Below, piece by piece: positions 5,645 to 42,635 of a stretch of 64,000 nucleotides of DNA. A program made the translations under genes and the position numbers. The stretch spans positions 12,835-76,834 of the forward strand of contig JAFNIT010000001.1 in the NCBI GenBank assembly GCA_017601345.1, written 5' to 3'. The notes under the pieces are model-generated. The model was given only the letters and a program-made list of their open reading frames with translations, had not been told where the DNA came from and ran no database searches. Every line of letters starts with the position of its first letter. Within the stretch, counting starts at the first letter, position 1. This stretch comes from Candidatus Brockarchaeota archaeon. GTDB taxonomy: Archaea; Thermoproteota; EX4484-205; JAAOZP01.

Positions 5645-6060
5645 AACTCTGAAATCTCTTTAACAAATTCATTATATATCTCGCTGACCTTTTCCGCAGC
5701 AAGGCCGCTTCCTTCTACAACACCGTTTTCAGTAACCCTTATTCTATTCATTACTATTATTACCCCTGCTTCCTCATTATACTGCACCATTTTAGGAAAT
5801 ACCCTTTCTATTCTCTCCGCCAGTTTCCTCAGGTCGATGATTGCTCTTTTAAGCTCTATTCTTTTTACATCTCTACCATTAAGTATAATTTTTGGCAACA
5901 CACCGCCTCCTTTTAGCTCTACGTTATTCAGAATAACCGAAAAAGTGTCTATGTCTAGAGATGCTAAAACTCCAGAAAATTCTTCACCACCCTGAGTAAC
6001 CACGACAACCTTTTTCCCTATCAAGCGGTTGACTTCTGTTGTGAATCCCGTCCTCATCAT
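5641..6060 (-). CDS. Sm-like (LSm) fold protein with C-terminal extension (SmAP3-like)
   Basis: N-terminal segment GKKVVVVTQGGEEFSGVLASLDIDTFSVILNNVE resembles the Sm1/Sm2 motifs; a ~70-aa extra C-terminal domain follows. This is a weak, sequence-only call. Confidence 0.35.
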   Translation of the reverse strand: MMRTGFTTEVNRLIGKKVVVVTQGGEEFSGVLASLDIDTFSVILNNVELKGGGVLPKIILNGRDVKRIELKRAIIDLRKLAERIERVFPKMVQYNEEAGVIIVMNRIRVTENGVVEGSGLAAEKVSEIYNEFVKEISEF

Positions 6061-6176
6061 TTTAACCCATTTTTACACTTCACCCCCTATTTTTAATACT
6101 TTCTGAAGCACGTTATTTACTTTAGAGCATAATTCTATTTCATAGCAGCTTTTATCGATTAACAGACTATCTTACT

Positions 6177-7106
6177 TTGAAGATGCGCCAAGAAGTAGTC
6201 CAAGACTTTACGAAATGCCCTAACTGTAACTCCCCTATTATAAATTCGGATAATGAGCTTGTTTGCAGCAGATGTGGTCTAGTTGTCAGTGCTTCAAACA
6301 GATATGTGGCCTATCCAAGTCCGAATCACATTATTCAAAAAGAACCTCATTACGGGAGCACTATTATAGAGAGAAACTCTCTTAGAAAAATATCCAGCCT
6401 CCAAAAAAGCATATCTTCCCCTAATAAAAGCGAAAACGAATTAAAATGGTTAATAGATAAATTGTGTGATACATTTCATTTAGGTCCCTCAATAAGACTG
6501 GAATCGCATCGGATTGGTTTAAGTCTGCTTCATGCATTCAGACAAAATCATGAGAGACCTAATAGAGCAGCTATTGCAACATATTCTGTAGTTACTGCAG
6601 CAAGGTTTCACGGCTTAAACACAACTCTTCATTACAAGAAGATAAGAACATATTTGCAAAGCATAGGTCTTAAAGTTAAAACCAGGGATGTTCTTCAAGT
6701 AATATCTGCAGCAAGAGGAATAGGCCTTATGGAAGCGAGAAATGATGCCGACAATACAATTATTGAAATTACGTCTATGATCATGAGGAATAATAGCCGT
6801 CTGGAAAAGCTTAAGCCTGAAGACAAAGTCAGTTTTATCAATCATCTTAGAACAATCTCATTCAGAATTCTCAAAGATTTAAGAGCCAAACATTATTTTT
6901 TTAGAAGCAAGAACCCGATGATATGCATAGCTTCTATAATTTACGCAGCATCTAGAGAGGCGGCATCAATCTTAAACATCAAAAACCCTGTTACTCAAAG
7001 GGAATTAGCAGAGTACATAGGGTATGCAGAATACAGTGTTAGAGAAACTTATGAGGAATTGTTTGGAAAAAGTTCATCAATATTCGATTCTTCACAGATT
7101 TCTTGA
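6177..7106 (+). CDS. Transcription initiation factor TFB-family protein, divergent paralog
   Basis: N-terminal zinc ribbon CPNC-x15-CSRC, then about 270 aa of cyclin-fold-length sequence. The B-reader/linker and core positions are poorly conserved compared with canonical TFB. Confidence 0.7.
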   Translation: MKMRQEVVQDFTKCPNCNSPIINSDNELVCSRCGLVVSASNRYVAYPSPNHIIQKEPHYGSTIIERNSLRKISSLQKSISSPNKSENELKWLIDKLCDTFHLGPSIRLESHRIGLSLLHAFRQNHERPNRAAIATYSVVTAARFHGLNTTLHYKKIRTYLQSIGLKVKTRDVLQVISAARGIGLMEARNDADNTIIEITSMIMRNNSRLEKLKPEDKVSFINHLRTISFRILKDLRAKHYFFRSKNPMICIASIIYAASREAASILNIKNPVTQRELAEYIGYAEYSVRETYEELFGKSSSIFDSSQIS

Positions 7107-7552
7107 CGAAGAAAATGTACTATATTGCTACTACGCCTAATTGAGAAAAATCCTTCACAGTCTTCTGCATAAGCCTCAACGGCTATTTGGATAACGTATT
7201 CTTCAGTATTATTGAGGAAAACAATAGAGTTTTCAAAGCGGATTTTTAATCCGCATTCTTCTAAAAATCCTTTGGTTTTTGAAACTTTTTCTATTAATTT
7301 TTCAATCCTCTTTTCTAAGGTTTCCCTCATAATTGAAAAATTCCCTCTCGAACCACTTATGCTATCATCCAGAATTGTGCTAATGCTTTTAAAGAAATCA
7401 TCTATACAGGAGTCAGCGATGATCGCTTTCCTTTTTTGTTTTAAGAAATTTACTGAAAGCTCAACGTTTACTAAGAGCATGAGGTTTACTGCAAGTAGAA
7501 CAATCATCATGAGAATTGAAAAAAACATTATAATAAGCCAGGTTTTAATCAT
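7049..7552 (-). CDS. Small membrane-anchored protein (N-terminal signal-anchor; pilin-like/pilus-associated candidate)
   Basis: N-terminus MIKTWLIIMFFSILMMIVLLAVNLMLL followed by a soluble domain. Last gene of a five-gene overlapping minus-strand operon. Its 3' end overlaps the TFB-paralog 3' end by 58 nt. Confidence 0.45.
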   Translation of the reverse strand: MIKTWLIIMFFSILMMIVLLAVNLMLLVNVELSVNFLKQKRKAIIADSCIDDFFKSISTILDDSISGSRGNFSIMRETLEKRIEKLIEKVSKTKGFLEECGLKIRFENSIVFLNNTEEYVIQIAVEAYAEDCEGFFSIRRSSNIVHFLRQEICEESNIDELFPNNSS

Positions 7553-7940
7553 TTCTAATCCCTATCGTAAGATACAATACATCTTCACCCACGATCTTTA
7601 AGACTTTGACATATCTGACCTGCTCCAAAGACTCTATTGAAACTTCCTCATTCCTTATTGTGATCCTCCCATGCTTCTCGCTGGAAAGCTCTATACTCAC
7701 CCATTTCACTTCATCAGAATTTAGAAACTTAATCAATTTATCAAGCATATTTTTAATCTCATGTTCTCGGTCAAGTATTGTAAGTGCATTAACCTCTATT
7801 CTCAAATCCTCATCGATATCGGATAATGATTTAAATTTCAACCTCAAATATTGGGAAGCAGCAACTACGGGTATAACTAGAAAGAAGCTTAAGATTATTG
7901 CTAATATACTTTCCCAAGAATCCATAGTATTTTTCACCAC
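7545..7940 (-). CDS. Small membrane-anchored protein (pilin-like candidate)
   Basis: N-terminal hydrophobic segment SILAIILSFFLVIPVVAAS. Start and stop overlap the neighbouring genes. Confidence 0.45.
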   Translation of the reverse strand: MVKNTMDSWESILAIILSFFLVIPVVAASQYLRLKFKSLSDIDEDLRIEVNALTILDREHEIKNMLDKLIKFLNSDEVKWVSIELSSEKHGRITIRNEEVSIESLEQVRYVKVLKIVGEDVLYLTIGIRND

Positions 7941-8065
7941 CTTTTGATGAAATCCATTATAATAGATATATTATGTAAGGTAAGCAAAAGAGCTAAACCA
8001 AGTTCGATTATTATCAGCAAGACTACGATTGAGGAGAATAGTGATTCAAGTAGCTTATCGCTCAT
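7937..8065 (-). CDS. Putative 42-aa hydrophobic micro-protein
   Basis: Minus-strand ORF MSDKLLESLFSSIVVLLIIIELGLALLLTLHNISIIMDFIKRW, not in the ORF track. Its ATG overlaps the stop of the upstream gene, fitting the overlap pattern of this operon. Confidence 0.3.
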
Positions 8066-8453
8066 GTCTAGTAAATACAACCTCCCTACCTGATGCTTTG
8101 ACAAAATATTTGCCTCCGGGTTCTAAAATAACTCTATTAAAGTAATAATATTCCTCTTCTCCCTCGAAAACACAGATTCCATGAACAATGATGTAATACT
8201 TGTTGCCGTCAAGCATAATGGAATAATTAATTAAGGGGGGATTTGGCATTAACAGAGTGAAAGCACATCCATGTTTCTCCGAGAGGATAGCGTATTGTTT
8301 TATTACTAAAAATATGCTTTCAAAGATATTTTTTAATGAACCAGTTTTCAGAATGTAAGTGGTATTAAAAATAACAATTCCTATTAGAAATGACGTAAAA
8401 AGCCATGAAGCATCTTTCAAATGCTCTTCAAGTATTTCGCTCAATGACCTCAC
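8055..8453 (-). CDS. Small membrane-anchored protein with beta-rich C-terminal domain (pilin-like candidate)
   Basis: Charged N-terminus, then WLFTSFLIGIVIFNTTYIL, then a ~90-aa globular domain. Confidence 0.45.
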   Translation of the reverse strand: MRSLSEILEEHLKDASWLFTSFLIGIVIFNTTYILKTGSLKNIFESIFLVIKQYAILSEKHGCAFTLLMPNPPLINYSIMLDGNKYYIIVHGICVFEGEEEYYYFNRVILEPGGKYFVKASGREVVFTRHER

Positions 8454-8458
8454 CCAAG

Positions 8459-8641
8459 TTAGCTAGCAACCAGCTTAACTACGGCATCGTATATTTGCTT
8501 GAGCATAGGAACTACTTGATCAAGCAAGTAAGCAATACTGATTCCAAATATTATTGTTGAAAAAAGTACTATCAGACTTTTCTCTAACAGATTACCCATC
8601 TCTCTAAACCTCCCAGTTTGAAATTTTCTTTCATTATTCAA
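8459..8641 (-). CDS. Small membrane protein, possible class-III signal peptide (FREMG|NLLEK...)
   Basis: 60 aa: basic N-terminus, a Gly, then a 22-residue hydrophobic helix. First gene of the minus-strand operon. TATA-like TTATAAGCATTCTTATAG in the upstream divergent region. Confidence 0.45.
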   Translation of the reverse strand: MNNERKFQTGRFREMGNLLEKSLIVLFSTIIFGISIAYLLDQVVPMLKQIYDAVVKLVAS

Positions 8642-8729
8642 CAGAAATCTCTATAAGAATGCTTATAACCTCCAATGCGCGTCAATATTGGCGGATAAAT
8701 ATTCTTTTTAAAAGTTTGGAATAGAAGTG
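8642..8729. promoter_or_regulatory. Bidirectional promoter region between the two arms of the pilus-like locus
   Basis: 88-bp AT-rich spacer. TATA-like TTTTTAAAAG lies ~20 bp upstream of the plus-strand small ORF. TATA-like TTATAAG (minus orientation) lies 20-40 bp upstream of the minus-strand ATG at 8641. Confidence 0.4.
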
Positions 8730-8876
8730 ATGTCAAAAGACGATCTATTAATTAATGCAATAATTCAAGAAATAGAAGATTTGAAGATTAGTCTAAGCAA
8801 GCTCAACAATAGGGTTTTAAGCTTAGAGAAAAAGTATCGTGAGCTAAGCAATTTCCTAAAGGTTGTCTACAGATGA
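8730..8876 (+). CDS. 48-aa coiled-coil protein, translationally coupled to the downstream ATPase
   Basis: MSKDDLLINAIIQEIEDLKISLSKLNNRVLSLEKKYRELSNFLKVVYR with a heptad-like pattern. Its stop TGA overlaps the ATG of the 8873 ORF (ATGA). Not in the ORF track. Confidence 0.4.
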   Translation: MSKDDLLINAIIQEIEDLKISLSKLNNRVLSLEKKYRELSNFLKVVYR

Positions 8877-10753
8877 ACGAGACTAGAGAAAACCTTGTAT
8901 TTTTTGCGCAAAGAACATGGTCATGGAATGCTAAGAGTAAAATCCTATACCTATCTGCTCAGAAAATCGACTCTTCTCTTTTCTGCAACATTATACATAA
9001 GCTTACACATCTTTCCCCGAGAAGAATTATAGTTCATCTTGATGATGAATGGTACGAGGTCAATAAAGAATGCTTAGATTTTCTAAAGAAATGCTCTCAA
9101 AGAGTTATTGAAGAGAAAAACAAGCGTTATAAAGCTCTTGTTGAAAAAAATTGTGACGACTACGCTAACCTGGATGATATTCAGAAAGAGCTCTGTATTA
9201 CTCCGTCTTACGGTACCTTATACTTAAAATGCTTAAACCAGATGCTGGAACTTAATATACCCGGCGAGTTATTGACCAGATGCGATATTAAAGATATGGA
9301 AAATGTTTTTAACAAGAAGTTTTCGGACAACCATAGATACGTAATAGGCCACTTACTCTACTCAATAGACGAAAGAAATAGTCTTTACAGAGTTTCCTTC
9401 TTATCAGACGATTATTTCTGGATTAATAAAGAGCTTTCGATACTCCTACGTCATGCTTATTCTGAAGAAATGCTTAAGAGTGGAAGGCTAGATCAAATTT
9501 ACAGACACAGGCTTAAAACTGGTTTAAGATTCTTAAAAATTCTGACTTCAAGAGAAATCGAGAAGTCAGTAAAGAAGTCTCTCGTTAAACATGCTCTATA
9601 CTCTTCGATTGGATTATCCAAGATCTTTCCTTTAATAATCGATGATAATGTGCAAAACTTCTTCTTAGACAATGTTGGTGAAAAGTTGTATGTAGATCAC
9701 GCCGTTTTTGGAAGACTAGATACAAACCTCAGATTTCAAGAGAAGGATTTTGAAAGCTTCATAACCCTGATCAAAAGAGAATCTAACCTTAATCTGGATT
9801 ATGCTAATCCTTCAATTAAGACTTCCATATTTTTTGATAAAATACCTATAAGAATTTCGGTAGATATTCCTCCCCTAACTTGGGGTAAGGGAGTTATAGA
9901 TGTACGGAAGCATATGAGTAATGTTCTTTCTCTCAAGTACCTTCTGGAGACGCATTATTTTTCTCCAGAATCCGTTGCCTTCTTAATCTTTGCCACACTT
10001 AACAGGGCCAACATATCTATAGTTGGAGAACCGAATTCTGGAAAAACTTCTCTCTTAAACTTTTTGAGCTACTTCATGCCCTCCTGGTGGCGCATAGTGC
10101 ACATAGAAGATGCTCTTGAAACACTCCCCCAAAGAGTTTCTGATCAACACAGGATAGTATACATTGTCGAGCCATTCGAAAGCAGGGAAGCTAAGGATAC
10201 TAAAACTCTCGAAATAATTAAGGTACTTCACAGAACCCCTTCTTATCTAATTCTTGGAGAAATCCAGACTAGAGGGCATGTAAAAGCAATGTTTCGAGCA
10301 GTTTCCGCTGGACTCAGGATAATGCATACTGCACATGCTTCCGATAGCAATGGATTTATTAAGAGGCTTGTAAAAGTATACGGTATCCCAGAGCTACTCA
10401 TATCGGAACTGGACTTGATAATAACTATGAAGAGAGTAGAATGGAGAAATACAGTTAAACGGTTTATAAGCGAGATAAAGATAGTTGATGAGAACTCTGG
10501 TTTGAAGAAAGTTTACGCTAATAATAATTTTTTAAAAAATTCTGCATACTATGATGATTTAAACGCTTCAAAGATATTTAGAAAATTAGCACGTTTAAAC
10601 TGTATTGAAGAAAATGTTCTTCAAGAAATGTATGAGGATATTAAAAGAATAATTATTAATCACGCTTTTTCAGAAAACTCCGTTATCAGGAAGCTTGTTA
10701 TTGAAACCTATTCGAAGACTTTAGGGGGAAATAGAAGCTATGAAAAGTATTAA
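8873..10753 (+). CDS. Type II/IV secretion-system ATPase (FlaI/TadA/VirB11 family) with a long N-terminal extension
   Basis: Walker A SIVGEPNSGKTSLLNF at about residue 386. Asp box/Walker B LILGEIQTRGH. His box MHTAHASD. Roughly 350 aa of N-terminal sequence precedes the P-loop. Confidence 0.85.
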   Translation: MNETRENLVFFAQRTWSWNAKSKILYLSAQKIDSSLFCNIIHKLTHLSPRRIIVHLDDEWYEVNKECLDFLKKCSQRVIEEKNKRYKALVEKNCDDYANLDDIQKELCITPSYGTLYLKCLNQMLELNIPGELLTRCDIKDMENVFNKKFSDNHRYVIGHLLYSIDERNSLYRVSFLSDDYFWINKELSILLRHAYSEEMLKSGRLDQIYRHRLKTGLRFLKILTSREIEKSVKKSLVKHALYSSIGLSKIFPLIIDDNVQNFFLDNVGEKLYVDHAVFGRLDTNLRFQEKDFESFITLIKRESNLNLDYANPSIKTSIFFDKIPIRISVDIPPLTWGKGVIDVRKHMSNVLSLKYLLETHYFSPESVAFLIFATLNRANISIVGEPNSGKTSLLNFLSYFMPSWWRIVHIEDALETLPQRVSDQHRIVYIVEPFESREAKDTKTLEIIKVLHRTPSYLILGEIQTRGHVKAMFRAVSAGLRIMHTAHASDSNGFIKRLVKVYGIPELLISELDLIITMKRVEWRNTVKRFISEIKIVDENSGLKKVYANNNFLKNSAYYDDLNASKIFRKLARLNCIEENVLQEMYEDIKRIIINHAFSENSVIRKLVIETYSKTLGGNRSYEKY

Positions 10754-11321
10754 GAAGCTTTTAACATCTCTTTACATTTTAGCACCAATAAGGAAAAAAG
10801 AAGAGAGTTCTTATGAGATAGTGACTCCATTGGTAATGGATATCATTACTGCTAAAACAATTTATAATGATTTATATAAGACATTTTATAGCGTTTCAAA
10901 AAAGGAATATGGCAATATCTACAGCTTATTAAGAAAATGTCTTAGGGAGAACTTAAATGGGAAGGATATGCAAAAAATGATAAAAAATTCTTTACAAAAT
11001 GATCCAGAACTATTAACTATTATTGATCAAGCATTTTCCATCGATGTAAAGAAAATAAGTTCAGAAGAAGTCCTAGTGCTCTTTAGGATTTTTGAATCTA
11101 AGGCAAGAAGGAAATATCAAGAATATACTCTAAAGCTTAACTCCTTGGTTTCTATTTTCTTCTTCTATATCTTCCTTGTTCCAACTCCAATTATACTGAT
11201 CTCAGAATTCCTGCCACAGACTTCCTATATACTACTGCCAATCTTTTTCATTTCCAATACCCTGATATTTAGAATATTTTTTAATAAGATTAGGAGGATC
11301 AAGAGTGAATTATTAGGTTGA
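10740..11321 (+). CDS. TadB/TadC-like platform protein, first half (single T2SSF-like unit)
   Basis: A ~130-aa cytoplasmic helical domain followed by hydrophobic helices (SLVSIFFFYIFLVPTPIILISEF, SYILLPIFFISNTLIFRIFF). Its ends overlap the ATPase upstream and the next ORF downstream. Confidence 0.55.
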   Translation: MKSIKKLLTSLYILAPIRKKEESSYEIVTPLVMDIITAKTIYNDLYKTFYSVSKKEYGNIYSLLRKCLRENLNGKDMQKMIKNSLQNDPELLTIIDQAFSIDVKKISSEEVLVLFRIFESKARRKYQEYTLKLNSLVSIFFFYIFLVPTPIILISEFLPQTSYILLPIFFISNTLIFRIFFNKIRRIKSELLG

Positions 11322-12091
11322 GGAATATTTATTATTATATATTAATTGAAGCAGGAATTCTTATTTTAGCATTTATCTTAAAACTCGAGATTCCAGCTAT
11401 AACTTCATTGCAACTTCTAGTATATACATTAATATTGACCAAAAATGGAGATGATGTGGATTCTCCAAAAACACTGGATTTGAGAGCAGTGGAGAAGATA
11501 TCCGAATATCCTGGAAACTTGGAAAATTTAGTTTTTAAATCATTTTCAGATATTAATGGGGAAACGGATTGTCGTAAGATTTTCGAAAAAGCTATTCACG
11601 ACAACATAAACGGTTTTCCAATAGGAAAAGCTCTAGTAAAGTATTCCAAACCATCAGATAAAACTATTAAAATATTGATGAAACTCGTTTCAAGCCTATT
11701 CGTTAGAGATGCGTCTTCTGTCAAAAAAGTTTTAGAAACATATATTATCATTCTGAAAGAAAACGAGATATTGAAAAATGAGAGAAGAAACATTTTTTCA
11801 GAGGCGAGGTTTAGAGCCAGAATAATGCTAATCGTTAGTGCTCTTTTAATGGGATTTCTTTCAGCAACGGGACCAGTAATCCACATGTTCTCTTCTTTTT
11901 CATCAAAGCCGATTCTTCAATTAGAAGCATCGCAAACATTTTCATTATTTACGTATTTACTGAGCGTTTCGATACTAGTACATTATTCTCTCTCTTATAA
12001 GAAGCTTTTGAAAACATTGCTATACTCCATAACCAGTTTTGCACTCTCTTTTCTAATATTTAACAAAGTACTTACAGCATTCCTATTTTAA
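11318..12091 (+). CDS. TadC/FlaJ-like platform protein, second half (polytopic membrane protein)
   Basis: Two N-terminal TM helices, a ~130-aa soluble domain, and three C-terminal TM helices. The ATGA-type overlap with the preceding ORF suggests two coupled genes rather than one fused FlaJ. Confidence 0.55.
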   Translation: MRNIYYYILIEAGILILAFILKLEIPAITSLQLLVYTLILTKNGDDVDSPKTLDLRAVEKISEYPGNLENLVFKSFSDINGETDCRKIFEKAIHDNINGFPIGKALVKYSKPSDKTIKILMKLVSSLFVRDASSVKKVLETYIIILKENEILKNERRNIFSEARFRARIMLIVSALLMGFLSATGPVIHMFSSFSSKPILQLEASQTFSLFTYLLSVSILVHYSLSYKKLLKTLLYSITSFALSFLIFNKVLTAFLF

Positions 12092-12110
12092 ATGTCTCTT
12101 AATTCCATTG

Positions 12111-12125
12111 GAGCTTATATTTTGT
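12111..12125 (+). promoter_or_regulatory. Putative internal promoter (TATA-like) for the pilin gene
   Basis: GAGCTTATATTTTG lies about 35 bp upstream of ATG 12158, inside the only non-overlapping gap (66 bp) of the operon. Confidence 0.3.
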
Positions 12126-12157
12126 TCATCTCCATTTGTAAATGAGGTGATGTAGAT

Positions 12158-12346
12158 TTGAAAATGAGAATTAAGGGATCGCAATTAATAGAAGAAGGGT
12201 TGCTTGTTGTGCTTGCACTAGTAATGCTTGGAGCAGTCTTTGGGATTTCAAAACAAATCGTGGATCACATAGCCAGTTTCTTCAACTCTCTAATAAAGGG
12301 TGTAAGTGACTTAGGCTATAGCCTATTCGGATGGCTCCTTCCTTAA
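12158..12346 (+). CDS. Flp/type-IV-like pilin with class III signal peptide
   Basis: MKMRIKG|SQLIEEGLLVVLALVMLGAVFG: a basic N-terminus, a Gly at the putative prepilin-peptidase site, Glu at +5, then a 20-residue hydrophobic helix. 62 aa in total. Confidence 0.6.
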   Translation: MKMRIKGSQLIEEGLLVVLALVMLGAVFGISKQIVDHIASFFNSLIKGVSDLGYSLFGWLLP

Positions 12347-12350
12347 AATA

Positions 12351-14123
12351 ATGGATCAAAAAATAGATCCAATATACTTCGTATTTCTTATAGTGTTACT
12401 CATATCGATGCTTAAACATATTGCAGCCGCTTTGCCTTTTTCTTTCAACAATTACTTTCCTGCCGTTTTGCCTACAGTATTCTCCCTAATAACAATCATA
12501 ATAGTATTTTTATTAAAACGCTCCAAATCTATTAAAAGTATACTACCAATTAATGACGAAAAATACTTTATTGTGAAAACAGACTCTTCTGAATTAATAA
12601 TAGGAGGGGTTTCAATATCCCCTGAAGAAAGCTCTGAATTAAGAAGTATTAAAGCCGACGATTACTATCGGAGGGTTCAGAGTTTCATAAGTGGTATTTT
12701 AAAGTCCGGAGTTTCACTCACATGCGTAACGCATATTTCTCCCGTTGAGGCTTTTGAGGACTCTGCTCATTTGACGCAGCTTTTAATAGTCAGTAGAAAA
12801 ATAGGTCGAGAGGGTATTAACGAAGCTATAAAAATGCTTGAAACAGATATTGAAAAAATGAGATCTATTTACAATACTGCTTTTCCAGAACTGAAAATAG
12901 TCAGGTTGAGTGGAGAGAAACTTATTAAGTATTTGAACAGTATTTTAATAGATAAGTCTGTCTTAGGAAAGTCTAAAGTAAGAGATTTAGCAAATTCGCT
13001 CGCACTGCATGTACCTGGATATACTTCCCTGCTTCCTTCAAATTCTTATATTGAACATGAGGGGGGAAAAGAAACGATAGATTTAGGATCGGTTATTTTC
13101 AGTGGTTCTAAAATTGCTCCGTTAAAATTAAAGATCAATATGTTTGAAAAGCATGTTGCCATATATGGTTCAACAGGATCGGGAAAGACAACTACCGCCA
13201 AACATATAGTGAGAGAATTAGCAAGATTGGGATATTCTTTAATGATTCTAGACTGGCATAATGAATACCGTCATCTTGCAGAAGAGCTTAATGGAAGAAT
13301 TTTAGGATTAGGGTCTTTCGCTTTAGATATAATTAACCCCATTGAATCTAGCAATGTATCTGAGCATGTTGCAATGGTTACAGATATTTTTGATCAAATA
13401 TATAATTTTACACCGTCACAATCGTATATGTTTAGAGAGGTGCTTTTACAAACGTTAACAGAGAACATGCTCGGTATTAAAGCATATGATCCTTTGGTTT
13501 CCTTTATAGATACGTTGGAGAAATGGAGTATTAAATCATTCTATGAAAATGAGACAAAGTTTGCATTGTTAAGAAGATTAAGACCTTTAGTAACAGGACA
13601 GAACAGAGAAATTTTCTGCAATAGGGATAAGCTAATAAGCATCAGAGATATATTAGAAGGAATTACTGTTTTCGAGCTCGGAGATATCATAGAAGTAGAC
13701 ATGCGTAAACTGACTTCACTTTTCATTTTAGCATTACTTTACGAATTTAGATTAAAGAATAGGGATTCGAAGCGCCACTTCATCGTATTAGAAGAAGCGC
13801 ATAATATACTTCCTTACAGGAGGCGTGATTCACCACAGACTATAGCTGAAAAATTATTTTTAGAGATGAGGAAGTTTAATGAAAGTTTAATACTTATATC
13901 ACAATTTCCGTCGCAAATTTCTCCAGAAATAGTAAAGTCCACCGGTTTGAAAATCTCTCACAGAATATGTGAGGGGGAGGAGTCGAGAATCTTAATGGAT
14001 ATAATGGGCTTATCTCAGGAAGATTATGACCTTCTTAAGAGGCTTCCCCCGGGATATGGCTTTTTAACGGCTGAAGGCATTTCTAAACCAATCTTTTTAT
14101 CTATCTATTTCAACGAAAAATGA
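12351..14123 (+). CDS. Membrane-anchored HerA/VirB4(CedB)-like P-loop ATPase (DUF87/FtsK-HerA superfamily)
   Basis: Two N-terminal TM helices (IYFVFLIVLLISMLKHIAAALPF; AVLPTVFSLITIIIVFLLK). Walker A YGSTGSGKTTTAKHI. Walker B FIVLEEAHNILP. A C-terminal LILISQFPSQI...ISHRI motif typical of HerA/VirB4/TrbE ATPases. Confidence 0.75.
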   Translation: MDQKIDPIYFVFLIVLLISMLKHIAAALPFSFNNYFPAVLPTVFSLITIIIVFLLKRSKSIKSILPINDEKYFIVKTDSSELIIGGVSISPEESSELRSIKADDYYRRVQSFISGILKSGVSLTCVTHISPVEAFEDSAHLTQLLIVSRKIGREGINEAIKMLETDIEKMRSIYNTAFPELKIVRLSGEKLIKYLNSILIDKSVLGKSKVRDLANSLALHVPGYTSLLPSNSYIEHEGGKETIDLGSVIFSGSKIAPLKLKINMFEKHVAIYGSTGSGKTTTAKHIVRELARLGYSLMILDWHNEYRHLAEELNGRILGLGSFALDIINPIESSNVSEHVAMVTDIFDQIYNFTPSQSYMFREVLLQTLTENMLGIKAYDPLVSFIDTLEKWSIKSFYENETKFALLRRLRPLVTGQNREIFCNRDKLISIRDILEGITVFELGDIIEVDMRKLTSLFILALLYEFRLKNRDSKRHFIVLEEAHNILPYRRRDSPQTIAEKLFLEMRKFNESLILISQFPSQISPEIVKSTGLKISHRICEGEESRILMDIMGLSQEDYDLLKRLPPGYGFLTAEGISKPIFLSIYFNEK

Positions 14124-14709
14124 GATTCAGCTTCTCGGAATGCTTAGAGAAATAACTAATCCAATCCACTTCATCACTCTTACATTTAAAGTCATTCTTA
14201 TAGCATTTCATAAACCTGTAATAGAGGTTTTTAATGCTTTTCCTAGTAGTGTCTAACTGTATGATCCTTACCTTTTTCAAGTATTTTTTAGCATTTAAGT
14301 AACAATAATCCGTAAGCTCCGATTCAACATTCTCCCTCGCTTTTTCCTCATTATATCCTTTAATTTTCCTGAGTCTATGCCAAAGAACATCAGGTCTGCA
14401 TCTCAATACGATACAACAGTCCACGTACTCAGCTGGAGAAACCTCCGCAGCATAATGGCCGTCTATTAGGAGGTTTAAATCCTCTCCAAGCTTGCTTAAA
14501 ATATATTTTCGTAAAGCCTTCTTCAGAACGCTTGTATCCACAATTCTAGTTTTCATAATACTGTCGTAGCCGATTACAGCATTCGAATCTATTGCAAACT
14601 TTCCCAAGTCAAGATGTACCCATCCTCTATTCTTTCTCACTACATAGCTGCACAGAGATGTTTTGCCGGTTCCAGCTGTGCCAGTAACAACTATGATTTT
14701 CCTCATCAC
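14110..14709 (-). CDS. Putative adenylate kinase / NTPase, Fap7-like (AAA-family kinase)
   Basis: P-loop IIVVTGTAGTGKTS at the N-terminus. ~200 aa with NMP-kinase-like layout. Confidence 0.55.
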   Translation of the reverse strand: MMRKIIVVTGTAGTGKTSLCSYVVRKNRGWVHLDLGKFAIDSNAVIGYDSIMKTRIVDTSVLKKALRKYILSKLGEDLNLLIDGHYAAEVSPAEYVDCCIVLRCRPDVLWHRLRKIKGYNEEKARENVESELTDYCYLNAKKYLKKVRIIQLDTTRKSIKNLYYRFMKCYKNDFKCKSDEVDWISYFSKHSEKLNLIFR

Positions 14710-14812: not shown

Positions 14813-14887
14813 AGCGGCGTTCGTCTAGTCTGGTTAGGACACCAGCCTTCCAAGCTGGGGATCCCGGGTTCAAATCCCGGACGCCGC
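14813..14887 (+). tRNA. tRNA-Gly(TCC)
   Basis: Manual fold: acceptor GCGGCGT/ACGCCGC plus A73. D-stem GTCT/GGAC. Anticodon stem CCAGC/GCTGG with loop CTTCCAA (anticodon TCC). T-arm CCGGG-TTCAAAT-CCCGG. 75 nt, no intron. Confidence 0.85.
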
Positions 14888-14931
14888 ATAAAAGCCTAAT
14901 AACCCATTTACCTCTTCTGCATAAGGTTTAG

Positions 14932-31726: not shown

Positions 31727-31817
31727 GCGGCGCTGGTCTAGCCTGGTAGGACAGGCCTACTTTCCTAAAACCAGCCCCCCAAGCTGGGAATCCCGGGTTC
31801 AAATCCCGGGCGCCGCA
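31727..31817 (+). tRNA. tRNA-Gly(CCC) with a 17-nt non-canonical intron between positions 26/27
   Basis: Acceptor GCGGCGC/GCGCCGC plus A73. D-stem GTCT/GGAC. Intron GGCCTACTTTCCTAAAA at 31754-31770. Anticodon stem CCAGC/GCTGG with loop CCCCCAA (anticodon CCC; C at position 33 is unusual). T-arm identical to tRNA-Gly(TCC). TATA-like ATTTTTATTC ~25 bp upstream. ORF 31719..31955 is spurious. Confidence 0.7.
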
Positions 31818-42287: not shown

Positions 42288-42345
42288 AGAGATCCACCGA
42301 TTTTCATCTATACAAGGCTCATTATAAGTCTTAACCCTTATAAAA

Positions 42346-42437
42346 AGCCCCAGGTGGGCTTCGAACCCACGACCTCCTCCATCAGCGCTTTTCAGCATTA
42401 CCAAGGAGGCGCTCTAACCAGGCTGAGCTACTGGGGC
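42346..42437 (-). tRNA. tRNA-Thr(GGT) with canonical 17-nt intron after position 37
   Basis: Reverse complement: acceptor GCCCCAG/CTGGGGC plus U73. Anticodon stem CCTCC/GGAGG encloses TTGGTA-[ATGCTGAAAAGCGCTGA]-T, so the anticodon is GGT. T-arm GTGGG-TTCGAAG-CCCAC. Confidence 0.75.
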
Positions 42438-42635
42438 TGTAAAGTTTCAGCATGCTTATGATTTAAAGTTTTTCTAGACCTGATTTTCGAGTATGTTTCG
42501 TCTCTTTCTGCATAATTTGTTTGATGCTAATAAAATCATGCTTTTTTCTTTAATGATGATGCCTCTGTTTTTGTGAATAAACTAGTAAAAAAGATTGTAT
42601 TGAAACCCATATAAAAAAGCTATATAAGTCGGCAG

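Follow-up and report, generated by a model that had tools for sequence, protein, structure and literature searches.

A CedD-type ATPase gene at the end of a conserved chromosomal type IV filament operon suggests pilus-coupled DNA uptake in archaea

A chromosomal type IV filament operon in a Candidatus Brockarchaeota genome ends with a gene that probably encodes this genome's ortholog of CedD, likely acting as a DNA translocase coupled to the pilus. CedD (Saci_0667/SiRe_1715; TedD in Thermoproteales) is the second ATPase of crenarchaeal Ced DNA import, a paralog of CedB that was described in 2025 (PMC11868833, PMC11823120). It is known genetically in two Sulfolobales species and was recognized only in that year; the questions raised about it concern its partner proteins, where it came from, and whether its role is that of a VirB4-half or VirD4-like (PMC11868833, PMC11823120). 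In Sulfolobales, CedD is essential for DNA import, cedD is induced by UV in a TFB3-dependent manner with TFB3 found at the cedD promoter by ChIP, and a modeled CedD hexamer has a positively charged pore of ~28 Å (PMC11868833, PMC11823120, PMC6101594, PMC6101591). The position of a CedD-type gene at the end of a conserved pilus operon suggests a pilus-coupled DNA-uptake machine. We found no report of a CedD-type gene linked in this way to type IV filament genes in literature on CedD in Nitrososphaerota, Bathyarchaeia, or Brockarchaeota, in reviews of archaeal type IV filaments, or in a paper on the type IV pili of ammonia-oxidizing archaea.

The window (the whole 64-kb stretch of DNA analyzed) carries an operon that runs from a 48-aa coiled-coil protein through a T2SSE ATPase, a pair of platform-like membrane proteins, and a candidate Flp-like pilin to the CedD-type ATPase, and is adjoined by a TFB paralog and four divergently oriented pilin-like genes. 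The features are as follows, and a tRNA-Gly gene lies at 14814-14888.

6177..7106, plus strand: divergent TFB/TFIIB paralog of 309 aa with a Zn ribbon and cyclin repeats
7049..7552, minus strand: pilin-like protein of 167 aa with one N-terminal hydrophobic helix
7545..7940, minus strand: pilin-like protein of 131 aa with one N-terminal hydrophobic helix
8055..8453, minus strand: pilin-like or pseudopilin-like protein of 132 aa, N-terminus ...SLSEILEEHL... followed by a hydrophobic helix
8459..8641, minus strand: ORF for a small pilin-like protein; an internal Met would give 46 aa (8459-8599)
8730..8875, plus strand: 48-aa coiled-coil protein, first gene of the operon; its stop codon overlaps the T2SSE ATPase start (ATGA)
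8873..10753, plus strand: type IV filament assembly ATPase of 626 aa with an N-terminal extension of ~230-300 residues
10740..11321, plus strand: another membrane protein (193 aa); its helical domain is cytoplasmic and its two TMs are C-terminal
11318..12091, plus strand: putative TadC-like half of the platform protein, 257 aa, with an N-terminal TM, a cytoplasmic helical domain, and C-terminal TMs
12158..12346, plus strand: candidate short Flp-like type IV pilin of 62 aa, or of 60 aa should translation begin at the ATG at 12164
12351..14123, plus strand: ATPase ORF with an ATG start, 590 aa
14110..14709, minus strand: Fap7/AAA_18-type kinase of 199 aa (Pfam AAA_18, 1.7e-19), convergent, its 3′ end overlapping the ATPase gene

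The first-pass annotation had read 12351-14123 as the gene of a membrane-anchored HerA/VirB4-family ATPase downstream of a pilin gene. The ORF is real, its product is a membrane-anchored ATPase of the FtsK/HerA superfamily, and the gene is translationally coupled to the pilin gene. The 590-aa frame is more than a chance ORF, since a database entry from a MAG labeled Candidatus Brockarchaeota is 100% identical to it and homologs number in the hundreds. Between the end of the pilin ORF (12346) and the start of the ATPase gene (12351) lies the 4-nt gap originally noted, and the overlap with the convergent Fap7-like ORF is indeed 14 nt (14110-14123). Read from the translation, Walker A (GSTGSGKTT) occupies residues 272-280 and Walker B (FIVLEEAH) residues 477-484, and the proposed distal S-Q/ISHR motifs are likewise present, the translation holding 'ILISQFPSQ' and 'KISHR'. 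Among 23 homologs, G273, T275, G276, G278, K279, E481, E482, R507, K508, Q518, H537, and R538 are invariant or nearly so.

Two N-terminal TM helices, also part of the original claim, are found by both approaches that we used. A Kyte-Doolittle scan (19-residue window, threshold 1.6) gives exactly two hydrophobic segments, centered near residues 19 and 46, with none elsewhere, and in the AF2 model helices span residues 7-27 and 36-55. The basic cluster KRSKSIKS follows TM2 immediately and, by the positive-inside rule, would fit a cytoplasmic ATPase domain. In the AF2 model, the TM hairpin (7-55) is followed by an alpha/beta N-terminal domain (61-200), a low-confidence linker (200-240), and the P-loop ATPase (241-590), and the Pfam DUF87/P-loop domain begins near residue 244. 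The stretch preceding the ATPase core is thus ~240 residues long, not about 110 as first estimated, and the membrane anchor is not constant in the family, as members from MAGs labeled Nitrososphaerales are without TM helices. A 116-aa ORF upstream of the TM-less Staphylothermus cedD was considered as a split-off N-terminal domain and rejected after hhalign found no match.

CedD is the best family match of the window ATPase (NCBIfam NF053655; 207 bits, E = 4.3e-61), with residues 13-585 aligned to model positions 4-525 of 527. This score is below the equivalog cut-off of 600 bits, a cut-off that is narrow to Sulfolobales: CedD of S. acidocaldarius and Metallosphaera scores 732-737 bits (S. acidocaldarius 732), the CedD-type proteins of Staphylothermus, Thermogladius, Hyperthermus, and Pyrodictium score 150-300 bits, the range of accepted Desulfurococcales CedD orthologs, and relatives of the window ATPase, for which CedD is by far the best family match, score 156-254 bits. 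When the window family was aligned by hhalign to 13 CedD sequences from Sulfolobales and Desulfurococcales, the match was collinear over 495 columns (probability 100%, E = 8e-68) and covered TM2, the N-terminal domain, and the ATPase to the C-terminus. We also compared the ATPase domains of 51 sequences over 333 columns in a rough neighbor-joining tree (200 bootstraps; without CedB, VirB4, or canonical HerA references). The pilus-linked clade (89% support without P0047 and P0049) stands apart from CedD proper, long bacterial proteins (~1000 aa) group with the former, and the two archaeal clades do not by themselves form a monophyletic group; this tree is too crude to decide CedD orthology.

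Linkage of the ATPase to pilus genes extends well beyond the window. Among 84 related loci, all seven marker genes are found together in 58, which come from MAGs labeled Brockarchaeota, Bathyarchaeia, Nitrososphaerota, Geothermarchaeota, and Thermoprotei. The genes for the T2SSE ATPase, the 257-aa protein, the pilin, and the CedD-like ATPase co-occur in 68/84 loci, and a linkage conserved to this extent is not due to chance. Where upstream DNA suffices, the T2SSE gene is missing from only two loci, and the gap between pilin and ATPase genes is mostly −4 to +7 nt.

The chromosomal setting ties these loci to known cedD genes. In relatives of the window locus (L001, L003/L004, L087/L088), PAC2, Lsm, TFB-like, pilus, and CedD-like genes converge on Fap7, thermosome, S17e, ..., RLI, and TIM genes, and in Staphylothermus hellenicus and a Desulfurococcaceae genome, PAC2, TGT, Lsm, Rpo8, and cedD converge on thermosome, S17e, ..., RLI, FBPase, and TIM. 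By this common chromosomal slot, the CedD-like genes of the relatives are positional orthologs of the Staphylothermus/Desulfurococcaceae cedD. In the window itself, beta-CASP, PAC2, and Sm-like genes remain on the upstream side and a convergent Fap7-like gene is still the neighbor, and the thermosome/S17e side has been replaced. A Fap7-type kinase gene occupies the same position in 78/84 loci and is, by position alone, a conserved neighbor of the ATPase gene.

The operon upstream of the ATPase gene has the makings of a type IV filament system. Its 626-aa ATPase matches Pfam T2SSE (PF00437; 6.3e-13, 48.5 bits, cut-off 24.9) and NCBIfam FlaI (2.9e-29), its nearest solved proteins by sequence are Archaeoglobus GspE2 (2oap, 3e-20), FlaI (4ii7, 5e-18), and CpaF (8e-14), and its family is present in 71/84 loci. 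The first gene, for the 48-aa protein, has ORFs of 51-82 aa at its place in L001, L003/L004, and L087/L088. Members of the 257-aa family (73/84 loci) match Pfam T2SSF in 3 of 15 orthologs, the best being the L004 copy (27.6 bits, cut-off 25.2), and the window copies of the 257-aa and 193-aa proteins have no Pfam match. The 193-aa protein (family in 71/84 loci) is possibly a TadB-like half of the platform, as a weakly supported reading: none of 15 family members has a Pfam match, a profile search against PDB sequences returned nothing, its resemblance to the 257-aa family is a short motif only (hhalign probability 74% with 15 sequences, 23% with ~60), and an AF2 model built with 16 close homologs is poor (pLDDT 60) and gave an empty fold search.

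The candidate pilin gene is preceded by a Shine-Dalgarno-like sequence (GAGGTGAT), and its product has a basic leader and the junction KG|SQLIEEGLLVV..., and its single hydrophobic helix is followed by a short amphipathic C-terminus. It recurs in 77/84 loci with the motif [KR][GA]|[SAV]QL[IV]EE[GA]LL, in which E12, E13, and L16 are invariant; searches of the family against Pfam and PDB gave no pilin or Flp match. A crude scan of the 64-kb window detected no polytopic ORF with the GxGD motif of prepilin peptidases (PibD, EppA, TadV), a gene that may lie elsewhere in the genome. Of the divergent pilin-like genes, the one at 8459..8641 probably starts at its internal Met (MGNLLEKSLIVLF...); its family is found in 21 loci, with orthologs of 47-73 aa that begin MSNLLEK... 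or MSAAIEK... and continue with one hydrophobic helix. The 8055..8453 protein, with a single N-terminal hydrophobic helix, has family members in 17 loci.

The TFB paralog, present in 65/84 loci, is a candidate for a dedicated regulator of the cluster. Its Pfam Zn_Ribbon_TF match (28.4 bits) is just under the cut-off of 29, its orthologs match the TFIIB repeat (32-38 bits, cut-off 23.6), the family profile matches TFIIB in PDB at 1.5e-19, and CxxC...CxxC is found in 53/56 full-size copies. In S. acidocaldarius, tfb3 is Saci_0665 (PMC6934391), which is two genes from cedD (Saci_0667), in agreement with locus L085. Since only the Zn ribbon of the locus paralog aligns with Sulfolobus TFB3, we reject orthology between the two and note their proximity to cedD-type genes alone.

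The most likely function of the CedD-type ATPase would be that of a DNA translocase coupled to the pilus. The TFB paralog may switch the cluster on, and the T2SSE ATPase and platform would then build a filament of short pilins that contacts DNA or another cell. Anchored by its TM hairpin, the CedD-type protein could assemble into a ring (of six subunits, as HerA, VirB4, and the modeled CedD suggest), which would spend ATP to pull DNA, presumably by way of a membrane channel, into the cytoplasm. A requirement for DNA import and TFB3-mediated damage induction are known for CedD only from Sulfolobales (PMC11868833, PMC11823120, PMC6101594).

Near-obligate coupling to pilus genes fits a role in the pilus machine itself equally well. 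The ATPase could then serve the filament and not DNA, as a second motor that extrudes, retracts, or gates the Flp-like pilus or exports a protein through the platform, a reading that we consider unlikely. Several observations are in its favor: the spacing of pilin and ATPase genes is tight in nearly all loci, T2SSE and platform genes accompany the ATPase in all but two evaluable loci, and PilT-type retraction ATPases are missing from archaeal type IV pili (PMC4858521). Moreover, a crude TM-helix and motif scan of the 64-kb window found no CedA/VirB6-like polytopic DNA channel. The same scan showed no CedB/VirB4, no second HerA/VirB4-type ATPase, and no adjacent protein with 6-7 TMs. However, the positional ortholog persists without pilus genes in Desulfurococcales and Sulfolobales, Sulfolobus CedD is needed for DNA import with Ups-pilus aggregation unaffected by its loss (PMC11823120), and the solved proteins closest in fold to the ATPase are DNA translocases or T4SS ATPases.

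The first-pass annotation had placed the protein with conjugative VirB4/TrbE and CedB. Extended to the locus, this would make it the VirB4/TrbE/CedB-type ATPase of a conjugation-like T4SS/Ced/Ted apparatus, with the small protein as a VirB2/CedA1-type pilin and the 626-aa ATPase as a VirB11 analog; we judge this very unlikely and already largely refuted. The VirB4_CagE (TIGR00929; 41.8 bits, cut-off 643) and TraC (29 bits, cut-off 567) models align only with the ATPase domain, full-length TrwK (7o42) aligns over just 344 residues in fold comparison, CedB (NF041017) is absent among NCBIfam matches of the window ATPase with E up to 0.043, and its model gives the relatives at most 46 bits (cut-off 700). 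The VirB11 model likewise gives the 626-aa ATPase, nearest to archaeal GspE2, FlaI, and CpaF, 44 bits against a cut-off of 250, a 257-aa ortholog matches T2SSF, and the 62-aa protein has a single hydrophobic helix, where CedA1 is described as a two-TM hairpin, and a [KR][GA]|SQLIEE leader junction of the kind typical for type IV pilins. Nor does the conjugative setting stand, because the ATPase gene neighbors a T2SSE ATPase, a T2SSF-like platform, and a Flp-like pilin, not VirB2/VirB6/VirB11, the locus is chromosomal and syntenic across phylum-level lineages and not on a mobile element, and full-length relatives of the ATPase were not found on plasmids or phages.

It is highly improbable that the ATPase is a paralog of the HerA-type DNA-end-resection helicase that serves repair and stands beside pilus genes by chance. 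Its best PDB sequence match is S. solfataricus HerA (4d2i, 6e-13), Pfam describes DUF87 as the HerA central domain, and SiRe_1715 was formerly labeled herA1 (PMC6101594), but HerA models reach only 59 bits (cut-off 800) and 36 bits (cut-off 970), NurA, Mre11, and Rad50 genes are not adjacent in the window or related loci, the protein has two TM helices, and its pilus linkage is kept in 68 loci. The earlier separation of this protein from soluble HerA, and its grouping with crenarchaeal Ced proteins, is therefore upheld. Finally, an integrated mobile element or provirus, with a packaging or transfer ATPase on a low-GC island, is scarcely credible: although GC is 0.33-0.35 at 6-14 kb against 0.42-0.46 in the flanks and the tRNA-Gly gene is close by, the same gene order with housekeeping flanks recurs in dozens of species from several phylum-level lineages, a synteny on which we reject the island reading, and we saw no integrase among the cluster ORFs at 6.1-14.7 kb and no close plasmid or phage relatives.

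If the ATPase is indeed a pilus-coupled CedD, its distribution invites an evolutionary reading that we regard as possible but, on balance, doubtful. TFB paralog, type IV filament genes, and CedD may together have been an ancestral DNA-exchange or uptake apparatus of Thermoproteota (TACK), with CedD first working with a type IV pilus. The apparatus would have stayed intact in lineages labeled Brockarchaeota, Bathyarchaeia, Nitrososphaerota, Geothermarchaeota, and some Thermoprotei, and Desulfurococcales and Sulfolobales would have kept only cedD at the site (in Sulfolobus, with a truncated TFB3 close to it) and rebuilt the system from Ups pili and T4SS-derived CedA/A1/B. Were this true, a pilus and translocase dedicated to DNA uptake and under TFB control would be present in many abundant archaea that are uncultured; should the protein instead work in the pilus, archaeal type IV filaments would have an accessory motor of a new kind.

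On the CedD assignment, the lineage is much wider than reported and, outside Sulfolobales and Desulfurococcales, nearly always tied to a type IV filament operon and a TFB paralog at the same chromosomal position. The locus thereby provides a concrete hypothesis for the physical coupling of pili with DNA translocation in archaea and a candidate evolutionary origin for the TFB3-controlled Ups/Ced network. The cluster could also be a marker for predicting DNA-uptake capacity in MAGs labeled Bathyarchaeia and Nitrososphaerota, and so bears on gene flow in lineages without genetic systems.

Among known systems, CedD is like the window protein in several respects: TM, N-terminal domain, and HerA/VirB4-like ATPase stand in the same order (PMC11868833 for CedD) and the profiles align collinearly, relatives of the window locus occupy the same slot by thermosome/S17e genes, the TM anchor is variably present in both families (PMC11823120 for CedD), and a TFB-family gene is nearby in both (PMC6934391 for Sulfolobus). 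They differ in that the window protein is only ~27% identical to CedD in the ATPase domain and below the NCBIfam cut-off, in that its gene belongs to a type IV filament operon by position and by translational coupling, unlike CedD/TedD as reported, and in that CedA, CedA1, and CedB are not seen nearby; its family also occurs in MAGs labeled Brockarchaeota, Bathyarchaeia, Nitrososphaerota, and Geothermarchaeota, unlike CedD as listed (PMC11823120, PMC11868833). Compared with CedB/VirB4 (TrwK, TrbE), the window protein has neither a family-model match nor the large VirB4-type N-terminal domain, and its locus is without VirB2, VirB3, VirB6, and VirB8 neighbors and not in a mobile element.

The filament genes resemble Tad/Flp (type IVc) and archaeal Epd-like pili in having a T2SSE ATPase followed by two separate platform-like genes, as would suit a split platform, a very short candidate pilin whose junction reads G/A|xxxxE with the Glu at +5, and extra pseudopilin-like genes (PMC6668835). 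In contrast to these pili, the window pilin has no Pfam Flp match, no TadZ/FlaH-like gene is seen, the T2SSE ATPase has its long N-terminal extension, and the cluster adds the CedD-type ATPase and the TFB paralog. Subsystem 4D of Pyrobaculum/Thermoproteus, next to the Rpo8 gene, combines the ATPase of a type IV pilus with a small membrane protein and a homolog of TFIIB (Makarova et al. 2016, PMC4858521). Compared by description only, it shares with the window a locus combining pilus ATPase, small membrane protein, and TFIIB homolog, whereas it is described as without pilins and no HerA-like ATPase is reported there (PMC4858521). In Staphylothermus and the Desulfurococcaceae genome, the gene immediately upstream of cedD in the same syntenic block is Rpo8, and a link between the window block and the subsystem 4D loci is only a lead. 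Lastly, while the translocation parts of bacterial competence pili are not homologous to those of the window locus, where ComEC and ComFA are not present, competence pili (Com, type IVa with ComEC/ComFA) and Thermus transjugation (pilus uptake with the HerA-like TdtA/HepA) are like it, in mechanism only, in pairing a type IV filament with a cytoplasmic or membrane ATPase that moves DNA (PMC11868833).

The ORF at 12351-14123 on the plus strand encodes a 590-aa ATPase (the window protein) whose catalytic motifs, as described in the first-pass annotation, are intact: Walker A (GSTGSGKTT, residues 272-280), Walker B (FIVLEEAH, residues 477-484) and a distal ISQ...ISHR motif. Across an alignment of 23 homologues (26-86% identity) these columns are invariant or nearly so, and a HerA-type D-W-H-N-E-Y strand and an E-M-R-K-F arginine-finger-like motif are invariant as well. 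The two proposed N-terminal TM helices are also recovered, both as hydrophobic segments within residues 1-55 in a Kyte-Doolittle scan and as helices at 7-27 and 36-55 in an AlphaFold2 model (pLDDT 78 overall, about 90 in the ATPase domain), which further contains an alpha/beta domain (residues 61-200), a disordered linker (200-240) and a P-loop domain (241-590). About 240 residues precede the ATPase core rather than the 110 or so first described, the sole inaccurate detail of that observation. Both TM helices are absent from homologues in MAGs labelled Nitrososphaerales (alignment of homologues A1; e.g., loci L005 and L026-L031), which still keep the N-terminal domain and operon, suggesting that the protein can do without its membrane anchor or has one provided by a partner. 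The same has been reported for certain orthologues of CedD and CedB.

The window protein adds a member to an established family, CedD. Beyond Pfam DUF87 (HerA central domain, 7e-22), it matches the NCBIfam CedD model (NF053655) at 207 bits (E 4e-61) in a single stretch covering residues 13-585. The VirB4/CedB-type assignment originally proposed for it finds no support: VirB4_CagE reaches 42 bits, TraC 29 bits, and CedB gives no significant match in the NCBIfam search, which disfavors a conjugation ATPase of that type, as scores of only 59 and 36 bits for the HerA models disfavor a HerA repair helicase. The score of 207 bits falls short of the curated CedD cut-off of 600 bits, and that cut-off is narrow: CedD of S. 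acidocaldarius and Metallosphaera score 732-737 bits, while in Staphylothermus, Thermogladius, Hyperthermus and Pyrodictium the CedD-type proteins reach no more than 150-300, the range into which the window protein's family falls (156-254). Profile-profile comparison of this family with 13 Sulfolobales and Desulfurococcales CedD proteins aligned 495 columns (probability 100%, E 8e-68), starting at TM2 and covering the N-terminal domain and the rest of the protein up to its C-terminus. In a crude neighbour-joining tree, the ATPase domains of the homologous proteins P0053, P0054 (Fibrobacter sp. HC4), P0066, P0071 and P0104 (~660-1020 aa) branch with the pilus-linked archaeal clade; P0053 additionally matches an NCBIfam 'serine-rich protein' model.

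The ATPase gene closes a tightly packed plus-strand operon that lies beside a TFB paralogue.

Genes of the cluster and its convergent neighbor
6177-7106: divergent TFB/TFIIB paralogue with Zn ribbon and cyclin repeats; family profile matches PDB TFIIB (1.5e-19)
8730-8875, plus: 48-aa coiled-coil ORF; its stop codon overlaps the T2SSE start (ATGA)
8873-10753, plus: T2SSE ATPase, 626 aa; nearest are archaeal GspE2, FlaI and CpaF
10740-11321, plus: membrane protein, 193 aa
11318-12091, plus: membrane protein, 257 aa
12158-12346, plus: 62-aa protein
12351-14123, plus: CedD-type ATPase
14110-14709, minus: Fap7/AAA_18 kinase, convergent with the CedD-like gene

The 4-nt gap before the ATPase gene and its 14-nt overlap with the Fap7-like gene had both been read correctly. 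The 62-aa protein has a basic leader and a K-G/S-Q-L-I-E-E junction (slash marking the junction), then a single hydrophobic helix with a short amphipathic tail, and the motif [KR][GA]/[SAV]QL[IV]EE[GA]LL is almost invariant in its family (77 loci). By sequence, this junction, with its Glu at +5, resembles that of Flp/Tad-type prepilins; since none of the Pfam pilin models matches, we term the protein Flp-like rather than a member of the Flp family. Pfam T2SSF is matched by 3/15 orthologues of the 257-aa protein, one of them above the gathering score. The 193-aa protein is organized likewise, its cytoplasmic helical domain preceding two TMs, and received no assignment in Pfam, profile, profile-profile or structure-model fold searches. 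Four small minus-strand ORFs (7049-8641) each carry a single N-terminal hydrophobic helix, as do their equivalents in three other lineages, and we infer that they are minor pilins or pseudopilins. The 48-aa ORF, which falls below the 50-aa minimum of the ORF list, is probably the real first gene of the operon; distant relatives have ORFs of similar size (51-82 aa) at its position, with coiled-coil-like N-termini where read.

This arrangement is widely conserved. One protein, from a MAG labelled Candidatus Brockarchaeota, is 100% identical to the window protein, and searching one genome per species gave 133 relatives; 79 loci were retrieved for comparison. Judging by their record titles, they all come from MAGs or assemblies of uncultured isolates, with submitters' labels that include Brockarchaeota, Thermoproteota, Nitrososphaerota/Thaumarchaeota (including Nitrososphaerales), Bathyarchaeia and Geothermarchaeota. 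The cluster is also found in two MAGs with the label Thermoprotei. Iterative profiles built from the window's proteins and run against all ORFs in 84 loci matched the CedD-like ATPase in 83, the Fap7-like kinase in 78, the putative pilin in 77, the 257-aa protein in 73, the 193-aa protein and the T2SSE ATPase in 71 each, and the TFB paralogue in 65. All seven genes occur in 58/84 loci, absences being mostly contig ends, with order and orientation always the same and a gap between pilin and ATPase genes of mostly -4 to +7 nt. The T2SSE gene is missing from only two loci with sufficient upstream DNA, L066 and L082, which may record decay or rearrangement of the cluster; L066 keeps the pilin and CedD-like genes. 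In nearly every pilus-cluster lineage (78/84 loci) the Fap7/AAA_18 gene either adjoins the CedD-like gene at its 3′ end or overlaps it there, a position it does not occupy in the Desulfurococcales and Sulfolobus loci examined; the adjacency may be plain synteny or a functional link.

At 6001-14000 GC content is 0.33-0.35, compared with 0.42-0.46 on either side, even though the cluster keeps its synteny and is inherited vertically. Plasmids and phages yielded no full-length relative of the window protein, which together with the conserved gene order disfavors a mobile element, so the low GC is no mark of a mobile island; it might instead stem from membrane-protein amino-acid composition or fast evolution. 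Elsewhere in the window, ARAGORN reports tRNA-like genes at 31727-31817 (91 nt) and 42345-42438 (94 nt) with no anticodon assigned, which may be intron-containing archaeal tRNAs.

Housekeeping genes flank the cluster. In relatives of the window locus the order is beta-CASP, PAC2, Lsm, the cluster (TFB, pilins, operon, ending in the CedD-like gene), then Fap7 and thermosome genes in reverse orientation, forward S17e and, further on, RLI and TIM. Staphylothermus hellenicus and a Desulfurococcaceae genome have PAC2, TGT, Lsm, Rpo8 and cedD, then a convergent thermosome gene, forward S17e and, further on, RLI, FBPase and TIM. S. acidocaldarius keeps cedD and the convergent thermosome gene, followed by a 195-aa truncated TFB with a Zn ribbon (locus L085, 11369-11956, minus), by gene numbering tfb3 (Saci_0665), two genes from cedD (Saci_0667) (PMC6934391, PMC11823120). 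Given this order, the window protein occupies the CedD slot of a block conserved across Thermoproteota, and we regard it as orthologous to CedD. Lineages differ in what else they have there: some possess the pilus genes and a full-length TFB paralogue, and Desulfurococcales and Sulfolobales possess neither. Staphylothermus CedD is a TM-less, 351-aa protein with the ATPase domain only. Unassigned small ORFs lie immediately upstream of cedD in S. hellenicus (116 aa; locus L086, 7630-7980, plus) and S. acidocaldarius (132 aa; L085, 7582-7980, plus); hhalign did not support the 116-aa ORF as CedD's missing N-terminal domain.

CedD, described in 2025, is the second ATPase in the Ced system by which crenarchaea import DNA; it has a HerA/VirB4/CedB-like ATPase preceded by a TM domain and an N-terminal domain, is induced by UV in a TFB3-dependent manner and is essential for DNA import (PMC11868833, PMC11823120, PMC6101594, PMC6101591). 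The analysis establishes the gene anatomy, the integrity of the catalytic motifs, the homology and position shared with CedD, and the conservation of the operon; DNA as the substrate, ring formation and regulation by TFB are inferred, and we consider a pilus-coupled DNA translocase the fairly probable function. The TFB paralogue would switch on the cluster, the T2SSE ATPase and platform would build a short-pilin filament for contact or DNA capture, and a membrane-tethered CedD-type ring would move DNA into the cell. In the main rival reading the ATPase works for the filament machine itself. This would suit the near-obligate coupling of its gene to the pilus genes, as well as a crude scan of the window for TM helices and motifs that found no CedA-like channel; we regard it as unlikely, since the orthologue persists elsewhere without pilus genes and in Sulfolobus DNA import, unlike piliation, depends on it.

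The literature examined places CedD in Sulfolobales, Desulfurococcales and Acidilobales, and TedD in Thermoproteales (PMC11823120, PMC11868833). Within incomplete journal coverage, reviews of archaeal type IV filaments name no HerA-, VirB4- or CedD-type partner, and nothing relevant links CedD or TedD to the lineage names found here; a paper on type IV pili of ammonia-oxidising archaea likewise mentions no such partner. The pilin-less 'subsystem 4D' of Pyrobaculum and Thermoproteus, with a type IV pilus ATPase, a small membrane protein and a TFIIB homologue adjoining the Rpo8 gene (Makarova et al., PMC4858521), may, judging from its published description, be a remnant of this cluster. The proximity of tfb3 and cedD in S. 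acidocaldarius, with the thermosome gene between them, passes without comment in the Ced/TFB3 literature examined. It parallels the TFB paralogue of the window cluster; only the Zn ribbon aligns between that paralogue and TFB3, and as far as position goes the two may be related. The apparent novelty is that a TFB paralogue, filament genes and CedD form one coupled system, that this system is so widespread, and that synteny ties it to the tfb3-cedD neighborhood of Sulfolobus.
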